From: a virus
Taxonomy: Duplodnaviria > Heunggongvirae > Uroviricota > Caudoviricetes
Direction: 5' to 3' (one strand)
IMG/VR virus record: IMGVR_UViG_2563366928_000004
Location: 1-9,117 of that record
Length of the DNA stretch: 9,117 bases
In this document: piece by piece, positions 3,649 through 4,539 of the stretch
Numbering within the stretch: position 1 is the first letter of the stretch
Layout: every line of letters starts with the position of its first letter
The notes under the pieces: generated by a model
The model's database searches: none
Told to the model about the DNA's origin: nothing
The model's input: the letters and a program-made list of their open reading frames with translations, nothing else
Made by a program: the position numbers and the translations under genes

Positions 3649-4539
3649 CTAAATACGCACTTTAAGATAAGTCAGCCCCGGATGAAGCCAGTAAGCCGGC
3701 ACTTTTTTAAAGGGTGGAGTATTAAAATCACGAAGAAGAGCCTCCCGCACAATTGCATCCTTATCAGCACCACTGGCCAGCGCTTCAATCTCAGCGGCTA
3801 CCTGAAGATATCCCATGCAACGGCCAACGCGCTTCATCAGCCCCTGCTTTTTATTGTTCTTCAGGTAATCAATGGCAAATTCAATGAGCTCCTCACTGTG
3901 CTGGTGCGATGGAGGTGTTACTTTCCCATTTTCTGAGATGGTTATTTTCCCAGCATCACCGGATACAACAAAGGATGGCCGGTTACACTCCCATTCCAGC
4001 TCACTGAAATTATCATTATGAATACTGAAACACTCTGCGAGATTTCTGCTCATCACTTTCCGACAATAATCGTCAAACGCAGCAAACTGCTTTTCATCGT
4101 CAGAAGGCACCAATATCGACCATTTCTTATTCAGCTCAACGACGTAGCTCTCCAGTTTTTCAATACGTGATTCAACATCATCTTTTTCTGACCGCAGTGT
4201 TGACGGCGGCATCTTCAGAGAACAAGTAATTCTTCCCGGTAGCTTTCCTTTGTAGGTTATCAACACATCCTGCGCCTCTAAAATTACGGGGCGCTTTTCC
4301 GGCAACGGTTCGTTCCATTCACATAACCCGGCAGCAACATCCATGAAAAACTGCTTCGCCTGCTTTTTCGCCTCAGCTTCGTAAAACTCCAGCGTGGCAC
4401 CTTCAGTACGGTCAAGACTAATCGCCACATCTGGCAACAACAGTGACGGATACCCACCAACTTCCAGTGCCACAGTAACAGTAATCTTATCCGGGTAATT
4501 ATTTATCCCTTTAACAACCAGTTCGTATTTTTTCTTCAT
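3649..4539 (-). CDS. Hypothetical 296-aa protein inserted between pinholin and endolysin; no signal peptide, no TM segment, no motif I recognise
   Basis: Long uninterrupted ORF. ATG at 4539 lies 4 nt after the pinholin stop, with a GGGGAGAG SD inside the pinholin 3' end. It ends 36 bp before the endolysin start, so it is co-oriented and tightly packed in the lysis operon. Confidence 0.8.
   Translation of the reverse strand: MKKKYELVVKGINNYPDKITVTVALEVGGYPSLLLPDVAISLDRTEGATLEFYEAEAKKQAKQFFMDVAAGLCEWNEPLPEKRPVILEAQDVLITYKGKLPGRITCSLKMPPSTLRSEKDDVESRIEKLESYVVELNKKWSILVPSDDEKQFAAFDDYCRKVMSRNLAECFSIHNDNFSELEWECNRPSFVVSGDAGKITISENGKVTPPSHQHSEELIEFAIDYLKNNKKQGLMKRVGRCMGYLQVAAEIEALASGADKDAIVREALLRDFNTPPFKKVPAYWLHPGLTYLKVRI

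Follow-up and report, generated by a model that had tools for sequence, protein, structure and literature searches.

The window, by which we mean the whole 9,117-nt stretch of viral DNA analysed here, carries on its minus strand a lysis cassette with an additional gene in its middle. This gene, read from the sequence, is an intact 891-bp open reading frame of 296 codons plus stop at 3649..4539, beginning with ATG. Upstream of it lies a 71-aa class II holin of the S21 type (pinholin family; 4544..4759, minus strand), which matches PF04971, 'Bacteriophage P21 holin S', at E 9e-33, has a dual start at Met1/Met4 (MYQMEK) and is 79% identical to K-12 EssQ. Downstream of it lies a 177-aa endolysin of the T4-lysozyme family (3079..3612, minus strand; PF00959, E 3.3e-23; phrog_7 endolysin), whose N-terminal YGLSAAVLALIAAGAPAP, a Gly/Ala-rich hydrophobic stretch, and E-8-D-5-T motif are consistent with a SAR endolysin. 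The cassette is completed by an Rz spanin gene (2124..2597, minus strand; PF03245, E 3.8e-47) with an embedded Rz1 frame at 2186..2371. The arrangement of pinholin, 296-aa gene and SAR endolysin given in the first-pass annotation thus stands, as does its statement that the prophage lacks stx: there is no stx within the window, and an iraM-like gene takes that slot. NanS-p is encoded in the same late transcript as the 296-aa gene, and Stx phages carry NanS-p too.

The junctions bear out the tight coupling to S that had been proposed. The holin TAA is followed by AGCG (4 nt) and then by the ATG of the 296-aa gene, whose Shine-Dalgarno sequence GGGGAGAG (4547..4554, minus strand) lies within the 3' end of the holin gene. 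At the other end, the stop codon at 3649-3651 is separated from the lysozyme ATG at 3612 by an AU-rich spacer of 36 nt (3613..3648, minus strand), and inspection of the sequence near that ATG found no obvious Shine-Dalgarno sequence. No promoter-like site was found on the strand of the gene, and its GC content is 45.7%, against ~54% in its neighbours. A hydropathy scan of the predicted 33-kDa product found no signal peptide, hydrophobic N-terminus or transmembrane segment, with a top 19-residue Kyte-Doolittle mean of 1.16 compared with 1.70 for the holin; since it lacks a transmembrane segment, the protein is predicted to be cytoplasmic. As for the opposite strand, only short frames overlap 3649-4539, the largest of which (145 aa, 3499..3936) runs across two genes, and the idea of a coding gene there was set aside.

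The gene had been described as unrecognised, but its family can be named. Residues 1-100 match PF07041 (DUF1327/YdfR) over profile positions 1-88 of 93 with a score of 150.6 bits (gathering cut-off 25; E 1.4e-44), the whole protein matches PHROG 1085 end to end (residues 1-296 on profile positions 1-296 of 296, E 2e-189), and an identical protein is recorded at NCBI as 'YdfR family protein' on 45 contigs. All nine of its PHROG matches, PHROG 1085 included, are of unknown function, and NCBIfam gave no match. The earlier remark that the product has no nameable catalytic motif agrees with these searches, as Pfam, NCBIfam and PHROGs contain no enzyme domain for it and no function has been characterised. 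A single-domain YdfR is ~100-116 aa long, whereas this protein has 296 aa, of which residues 113-296 are outside the Pfam model. Because these residues comprise a linker and a separate conserved domain, the protein is a long-form variant of YdfR, and is so catalogued by NCBI too. We are highly confident that the frame is an intact coding gene for this long, two-domain form of YdfR/DUF1327. Lambdoid prophages in Escherichia, Shigella and Salmonella carry the family as a late (lysis)-region accessory gene, and its E. coli members lie immediately behind an S21-type holin on the late transcript, from which they are translated. The family and its usual slot were already known; what is added here is the long-form two-domain architecture. 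A literature search on the family returned one relevant paper (PMC13232886) and none that studies what the long form does.

The protein can be divided into three parts. Residues 1-112 (4204..4539, minus strand) form the N-terminal module, in which the DUF1327 domain (three strands and a long helix, ~1-76) is followed by an extension. This module corresponds to the short YdfR of BP-4795 and of Stx1 phages. Residues 113-188 (3976..4203, minus strand) are an acidic, helical, mosaic linker with a pI of 4.7, which opens with a coiled-coil-like SRIEKLESYVVELNKK segment and has helices predicted, at low pLDDT, at 113-143 and 149-171; its length and content differ among family members, and the alignment shows alternative inserts and deletions. 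Residues 189-296 (3652..3975, minus strand) are a conserved basic C-core of ~108 aa with a pI of 9.1, supported by invariant columns, an AlphaFold (AF2) model and dN/dS. The C-core is predicted to consist of a beta-meander, a three-helix bundle and a C-terminal tail (pLDDT 90.7, pTM 0.83), and its conserved motifs are H214, G239-R240-C-M-G, L245-Q246-x-A-A-E-I-E, N-P-P-F-K278 and W284-x-x-P-G-x-x-Y-L. The full-length model, made from a shallow alignment of E. coli sequences only, reached a pLDDT of 52.6 and was kept out of the fold searches, which were made with the C-core. No Pfam family covers residues 189-296, no lysis-category family was found in a PHROG search with the C-core, a profile search of PDB sequences gave no match below E 0.16, and Foldseek against PDB and BFVD gave none at E ≤ 1e-3, with query-normalised TM scores below 0.41. 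DUF6200 appeared twice (E 0.018) among scattered sub-threshold matches in a permissive Pfam scan of 13 C-core sequences; we judged these to be chance matches.

The C-core is under purifying selection, with a dN/dS of 0.24 over 30 distinct alleles. For the N-domain dN/dS is 0.43 pooled and 0.72 among close alleles. Among the near-identical 296-aa alleles pS is only 0.016, a divergence too shallow for interpretation, and we read dN/dS from the wider allele set. Homologues from Salmonella enterica (EGG3069952.1, 192 aa; HDN6462052.1, 266 aa) have a DUF1327-like N-domain and a C-core with all invariant residues kept, at 26-34% identity to the window protein over the full length and 32-41% in the comparison of the conserved core. 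Together with the 45-contig record and the C-core dN/dS, this core conservation argues that the frame is a real coding region and did not arise by chance.

The first-pass annotation took the gene to be an unusual insert, on the ground that R normally comes straight after S. That premise fails for this holin lineage: a survey of S-to-R spacing found a gene between S and R in 59 of 68 related cassettes and S directly followed by R in nine, whose holins are at least 97% identical, and the K-12 Qin prophage reads essQ-ydfR-rrrQ. E. coli cassettes of the S21 type therefore usually hold a gene between S and R. The slot is occupied alike by forms with the N-domain only, the C-core only or both, the commonest occupant being a 114-aa short YdfR (20/80 loci, as against 7/80 for the 296-aa form). 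An intact 296-aa frame is present at 35 loci, which represent 12 distinct alleles including that of the window; 329-aa forms are intact as well, and split forms of 148 or 163 aa occur. C-only forms of 185 aa are as common as forms with both modules, so the N and C modules need not act together. The possibility had been allowed for that the insert is a common conserved component of this cassette type with a known role; it is indeed common and conserved, and no known role comes with it.

The family is frequent in E. coli and has a narrow taxonomic range. DUF1327 DNA is present in about half of complete E. coli genomes, which makes YdfR/DUF1327 one of the commonest E. coli prophage genes; the long form is in ~10%, and the C-core is in 777 of 5426 (14%), its carriers including STEC and ST131. 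Only 26 representatives were found among 1.84 billion proteins, and a contig scan of 100,044 species-representative genomes found the C-core motif in one, indicating rarity.

Much of this gene has been missed by annotation. In a genome with 100% identical DNA, the PGAP annotation stops at codon 112 and gives codons 1-112 as a YdfR pseudogene 'missing C-terminus', and the C-core region has no annotation in 36 of 60 sampled genomes. The conserved 108-aa C-core is absent from Pfam and, in most RefSeq carriers, is either unannotated or labelled a pseudogene. These calls, and the existence of the split forms, would fit a reading in which everything beyond codon 112 is non-functional read-through into a remnant, an accidental fusion. 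Against this stand the intact 296-aa frames in their 12 alleles, the intact 329-aa forms, the low dN/dS of the C-core, its confidently predicted fold, and the retention of the two-domain architecture in Salmonella at such low identity. The pseudogene reading is largely refuted, and we give it almost no weight. The same genome bears on the claim that the protein would be made only late with the lysis proteins. This holds for intact relatives, but in that genome an IS1 element has taken out the early region entirely, Q and pR' with it, so that the copy there may not be expressed at all.

The Salmonella homologues keep both domains and yet are encoded in the lambdoid late region ahead of the holin, with a convergent 105-aa gene after them and with S and R adjacent; at some of these loci the neighbouring holin belongs to a different family, PF16080. 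The gene is hence a late-region accessory and not an S-R component, and on the genomic comparison the 296-aa gene is an accessory of the late operon that lysis itself does not require.

What such an accessory might do is suggested by its K-12 relative. Residues 1-72 of K-12 YdfR interact with Rne 1-597 and with Rng in two-hybrid assays, and Rne 1-598 co-purifies with Strep-YdfR, as does DNase-resistant nucleic acid, findings reported in 2026 (PMC13232886). In the RNA pull-down a contaminant remained possible in the authors' view, and overexpression of K-12 YdfR caused few transcript changes (PMC13232886). Because the part of the K-12 protein that binds the catalytic half of RNase E has a counterpart here, residues 1-74 being 47% identical to K-12 YdfR 1-74, our tentative proposal is that the long form may be an adaptor in the cytoplasm which, by binding RNase E and RNA, influences the RNA metabolism of the host in the late lytic phase. 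In this scheme the N-domain is the part that would attach to RNase G and to the N-terminal catalytic half of RNase E, while the linker would serve as a spacer or promote oligomerisation. A second ligand, RNA or a protein, would be recruited by the C-core, whose pI of 9.1 is in keeping with this. RNase E binding by the 296-aa protein and everything said here of the role of the C-core are inferred. Several observations speak against the proposal. The RNase E evidence stems from a single study, of a short protein with less than half its residues in common over the shared domain, and charge alone links the C-core to RNA. The N-domain evolves fast, which would also suit an arms-race function, C-only forms are as common as those with both modules, and the genome whose DNA is identical has lost Q and pR'.

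The genetic context invites a role in lysis timing. A soluble cytoplasmic factor made stoichiometrically with the pinholin could tune the lysis clock by attaching to the SAR endolysin before its release or to the charged C-tail of S21 in the cytoplasm, and accessory endolysin regulators have precedent (PMC9239132). The start codon 3-4 nt past the holin stop, with the Shine-Dalgarno sequence inside S, is shared by 68 of 80 related loci, the distance between C-core and R takes one of two fixed values, 36 nt in 67 of the 80 C-core loci and 42 nt in the other 13, and the gene is always beside lysis genes, in Salmonella included. Linkage within recombination modules can, however, account for such fixed junctions, and neither the obligate co-occurrence nor the fixed order with holin and endolysin that would mark an antiholin or lysis regulator was found: the nine cassettes with S straight to R show the gene to be dispensable, the Salmonella homologues are upstream of a holin, sometimes that of PF16080, with a convergent gene between, and N-only and C-only forms interchange in the slot. 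No lysis-category PHROG matched either the whole protein or the C-core, and we consider a timing function unlikely. An arms-race moron in a hypervariable accessory slot of the prophage, with a product that serves defence, superinfection exclusion or anti-defence, would account for the low GC content, the extreme mosaicism with alternative modules in one slot, the narrow taxonomic range, the relaxed constraint on the N-domain and the ParE and HicAB modules that adjoin Salmonella homologues. Yet PADLOC-DB gave no defence family even at E ≤ 1, the gene has no promoter-like site of its own, and its translational coupling to S implies expression only late, a timing that does not suit anti-defence and a state that does not suit a defence expressed in the lysogen; we therefore regard this as improbable.

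The first-pass annotation also raised the idea of an effector or toxin released by lysis, which would here replace Stx functionally. Expression with the lysis genes, the absence of an export signal and the late transcript shared with NanS-p would be in line with it. The gene is downstream of S, however, and not in the slot that holds toxin cargo, which lies between Q/tRNAs and the lysis genes; Pfam, NCBIfam and PHROGs gave no toxin or enzyme domain; and the C-core is modelled as a small beta-meander and helical bundle with no enzyme-like structural neighbour. YdfR relatives occur alongside stx in Stx1 and Stx2 phages, and a Salmonella relative adjoins an ArtA-like toxin gene, so these relatives do not replace those toxins. 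A short copy is present in the harmless strain K-12, and that homologue has an intracellular partner and alters few transcripts (PMC13232886). Released cargo is accordingly a weak and very improbable reading. For the whole YdfR family, the K-12 RNase E report supplies a starting hypothesis that is cheap to test.

Several named relatives can be set beside the long form. K-12 YdfR (b1555, Qin) occupies the same slot, in the order essQ, 4 nt, ydfR, rrrQ, and shares PF07041 with the window protein. It is a single domain plus one helix of 103 aa without the mosaic linker and the C-core, and its gene overlaps the lysozyme start where the window has a spacer. The short YdfR of Stx phages (BP-4795, many Stx1a/Stx2c; 112-116 aa) has the same S-proximal junction and, in the 112-aa BP-4795 form, 92% identity over residues 1-112, but stops where the linker of the window protein begins and lacks the C-core. 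Conversely, C-only 'hypothetical proteins' of 185 or 213 aa (for example BCI50505 of the Stx2a phage Stx2_12E129) have the same coiled-coil start, linker and C-core at 60-97% identity and the same post-holin position, but no DUF1327 N-domain, so the two modules can exist apart; the 185-aa forms share the 36-nt junction to R, whereas a convergent gene stands between the 213-aa Stx2_12E129 gene and R. The DUF1823 label on PhiR5_1 was set aside: it pertains to another, convergent gene and found no confirmation in Pfam.

Two kinds of functional system offer themselves as parallels. T4 RIII, P1 LydB and the endolysin regulators of phage Mu are small, soluble accessory proteins whose genes adjoin those of holins or endolysins, and they supply the logic of a lysis-timing role; the 296-aa protein has no homology to them, no lysis-category PHROG matching, and its gene, unlike theirs, is dispensable and variable in its position relative to S. 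The RNase E adaptor RapZ has no sequence relationship to it either, Pfam giving no RapZ-family match, and is an analogue in function only: contact with the catalytic half of RNase E and co-purification with RNA are predicted for the window protein by homology to K-12 YdfR. Taken as far as it will go, and here we are speculating on something we think rather improbable, the adaptor proposal would make DUF1327 an RNase E docking module, the C-core a new fold, without PDB or BFVD neighbour, that binds RNA or a second host factor, and the long form a modular, RapZ-like adaptor that reprogrammes the decay of host RNA during the final minutes before lysis, with the swappable N-only, C-only and two-module forms as alternative settings of one device used by prophages of E. 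coli and Salmonella, Stx phages and ST131 prophages among them.

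The minus strand of the window is a lambdoid late region, and the 296-aa gene (3649..4539) lies within its lysis cassette. Along this strand a NanS-p-type esterase (5461..7437; DUF1737, SASA and DUF6645 domains) is followed by a DUF826 protein, an S21-type holin (S, 4544..4759; PF04971), the 296-aa ORF, an endolysin of the T4-lysozyme family, SAR-like at its N-terminus (R, 3079..3612), and Rz (2124..2597) with embedded Rz1 (2186..2371). The holin TAA is followed by AGCG and then the ATG of the 296-aa ORF; GGGGAGAG lies within the 3' end of the holin gene, and 36 nt separate the ORF's stop codon from the endolysin ATG. 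The sequence confirms that the gene exists within the stated limits, with both junctions as the first-pass annotation described them. The absence of a transmembrane helix also holds: 19-residue hydropathy peaks at 1.16 (holin, 1.70), and this measure finds no TM-like segment in the 296-aa protein. Upstream of the holin start and after the DUF826 gene is a terminator-like hairpin (4799-4824, minus; 11 pairs and a weak T-run), within the supposed single late transcript. The R-Rz gap of ~480 nt (window 2594-2955, minus) is a second accessory slot. It contains two small ORFs, one with a hydrophobic C-terminal stretch, which AF14, an E. coli genome with DNA 100% identical to the window, lists as hypothetical proteins of 43 and 60 aa. 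Directly downstream of Rz, about where lambda has bor, is a gene for a small TonB C-terminal-domain protein (1487-1867, minus; PF03544, E 1.1e-12) with a lipoprotein-like N-terminus.

The gene had been called unrecognised, but it belongs to a widespread, catalogued family without an assigned function and occupies that family's usual slot. PF07041 (DUF1327) matches residues 1-100 (150.6 bits, E 1.4e-44), PHROG 1085 spans 296/296 positions (E 2e-189), and the Qin prophage of K-12 has a counterpart. The identical sequence is recorded on 45 contigs, under the names 'YdfR family protein', 'DUF1327 domain-containing protein' and, in UniRef, 'Phage protein' (A0A376L685). The gene is thus already known as part of the uncharacterised YdfR family; PADLOC and NCBIfam gave no match to the protein. 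PHROG sub-families cover residues 1-113, 1-176, 120-233 and 235-296, spans that hint at a modular protein.

Nor is the insert rare, as a survey of S-to-R spacing shows. Among 80 IMG/VR loci with a holin at least 97% identical to the window's (the 80 best matches from 593 or more, hence a non-random sample), 68 have a lysozyme downstream of the holin; S leads straight into R (gap 3-4 nt) in just 9 of these 68 cassettes, and 59 carry an insert, which is the rule for this S21-type holin lineage. The first post-holin ORF in the 80 loci is most often 114 aa long (n = 20), followed by 296 aa (n = 7), 104 aa (n = 6), 268 and 116 aa (n = 5 each), 176 aa (n = 4) and 185 aa (n = 3), with one locus for each remaining length. 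Megablast on 5426 complete E. coli genomes placed the holin at 8940 sites in 2450 genomes, the N-module (residues 1-112) at 5728 in 2653 and the C-terminal core (C-core, residues 189-296) at 952 in 777. The whole S-gene-R block was at least 80% covered in 559 genomes, and carrier strains include O157:H7, O111, O103 and ST131.

An alignment of E. coli relatives divides the protein into a conserved N-module (1 to ~112), a mosaic middle, coiled-coil-like at its beginning and marked by alternative insertions and deletions, and the conserved C-core. The C-part also occurs alone, in proteins of 185 or 213 aa whose start lies 3 nt beyond the holin; Stx2a phage Stx2_12E129 encodes one of these. Among 81 C-core loci (80 from IMG/VR and one genome locus), 32 encode the 185-aa C-only form, 27 the 296-aa form, 9 a 329-aa form, 11 a split form (148 or 163 aa), one a 264-aa form and one a 231-aa form limited by the contig end. 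An S21-type holin lies upstream in 80 of them, the remaining locus ending at its 5' side, and a lysozyme lies downstream in 80, at 36 nt (67) or 42 nt (13), the last contig ending earlier. An exhaustive phmmer search of 1.84 billion representatives with residues 113-296 returned 26 proteins at E <= 1e-3; the distant matches (35-46% identity) come from Salmonella enterica or are known solely from Logan read assemblies, and several combine a DUF1327-like N-domain with the C-core. L226, G239, R240, L245, Q246, A248, P276, K278, W284, P287 and Y291 are invariant, and near-invariant residues include H214, A249, E250, I251 and G288. AlphaFold2 models the full-length protein poorly (pLDDT 52.6). For the C-core, with Salmonella homologues in the alignment, it gives a confident model (pLDDT 90.7, pTM 0.83), whose predicted elements are a three-stranded meander, a bundle of three helices and a tail at the C-terminus that includes a short helix. 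The structural check proposed earlier found no characterised family: Foldseek returned no match for the C-core in PDB or BFVD at E <= 1e-3, a profile search of PDB sequences was also negative, and no Pfam family covers it.

Public annotation would favour reading the ORF as a pseudogene or accidental fusion. In AF14, from a blood culture, PGAP marks codons 1-112 alone, as a pseudogene 'missing C-terminus', and leaves the rest blank. Across 60 evenly spaced members of the 777 C-core genomes, RefSeq has no feature over the C-core region in 36; the label there is 'hypothetical protein' in another 23 and 'YdfR family protein' in the last one. However, the 296-codon frame is unbroken in 35 fetched loci representing 12 distinct alleles, the window's included, the C-core has a pooled dN/dS of 0.24 over 30 alleles (N-domain: 0.43 over 34), and the C-core model is confident, making that reading very improbable. 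The ORF is a real gene despite its frequent RefSeq treatment. Its C-terminal coding region (3649-4203) is a RefSeq/PGAP blind spot, though the ORF is intact.

In Salmonella prophages the homologues have the holin on one side and the Q antiterminator or cargo genes on the other; the cargo includes ParE and HicAB modules and, at a single locus, an ADP-ribosyltransferase resembling ArtA. The holin is from another family, PF16080, in some loci. The homologues are usually followed by a small convergent gene, and S and R adjoin there. Gene location is therefore independent of the S-R junction; what is conserved is a late region beside the lysis genes, not placement between S and R. Because insert-free cassettes exist, N-only, C-only and N+C forms can replace one another, and GC (45.7%, GC3 46%) is below that of the neighbours (~54%, GC3 59-67%), the 296-aa gene is accessory and moron-like rather than a lysis component. 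The convergent ~105-aa gene, also found after the C-core gene in Stx2_12E129, has no Pfam match and lies on the strand opposite the C-core gene (4599-4916, 4807-5124 and 3145-3459 in comparison loci L171, L173 and L003), with copies 51-68% mutually identical; it is absent from the window, where merely 36 nt lead to R. In the Salmonella prophage locus L171, the ArtA-like gene (Pertussis_S1/Scabin-like, E ~2e-5) and a 106-aa partner (2157-3469) occupy the cargo slot upstream of the long YdfR homologue, a parallel to stx in E. coli phages.

No promoter-like site was found on the gene's own strand, so expression relies on the late transcript. The AF14 prophage adjoins potC and runs int, xis, truncated exonuclease, IS1, DNA-methylase fragment, tRNA-Ile/Arg/Arg, iraM and nanS-p onward. 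IS1, whose end is visible in the window at ~8925 to 9117, truncates the methyltransferase gene (fragment 8601..8879, minus) and replaces the immunity, replication and nin regions, Q and pR'. The prophage is defective, since immunity, replication, Q and pR' are lost. Late expression with the lysis proteins, as the first-pass annotation had it, is thus inferred from intact relatives, and the copy at this locus may be silent. The iraM-like anti-adapter gene (RpoS stabiliser; 7683-8018, plus, opposite to the late genes), without a Pfam match, lies between the phage tRNAs (~8300-8560, minus) and nanS-p, where Stx phages have stxAB.

The sole experimental handle on YdfR function is a 2026 study (PMC13232886), in which K-12 YdfR residues 1-72 came out of a two-hybrid screen baited with RNase G and bound RNase E 1-597 more strongly than RNase G. 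Strep-YdfR co-purified Rne 1-598 plus DNase-resistant nucleic acid, the authors leaving a contaminant possible as source of the RNA signal, and overexpression altered few transcripts (PMC13232886). Among the rivals to the adaptor proposed below, a regulator of lysis timing is an unlikely role and an arms-race moron a more doubtful one; a lysis-released effector, the earlier Stx-like cargo reading, is unsupported and highly improbable, and the probability left after all of these readings belongs to something else. Tentatively, we propose a cytoplasmic late-phase adaptor, whose N-domain would dock onto the catalytic half of RNase E and whose C-core would supply a second ligand. The residual interest lies in an undescribed, under-annotated C-terminal domain and a testable RNase E lead. 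The adaptor proposal draws on the basic C-core (pI 9.1), the acidic linker (residues 113-188, pI 4.7) and likeness to K-12 YdfR, whose residues 1-74 are 47% identical to the 296-aa protein. The Qin prophage of K-12 has the same layout (essQ, a 4-nt gap, ydfR of 103 aa, rrrQ, rzpQ), with a holin, EssQ, 79% identical to the window's.
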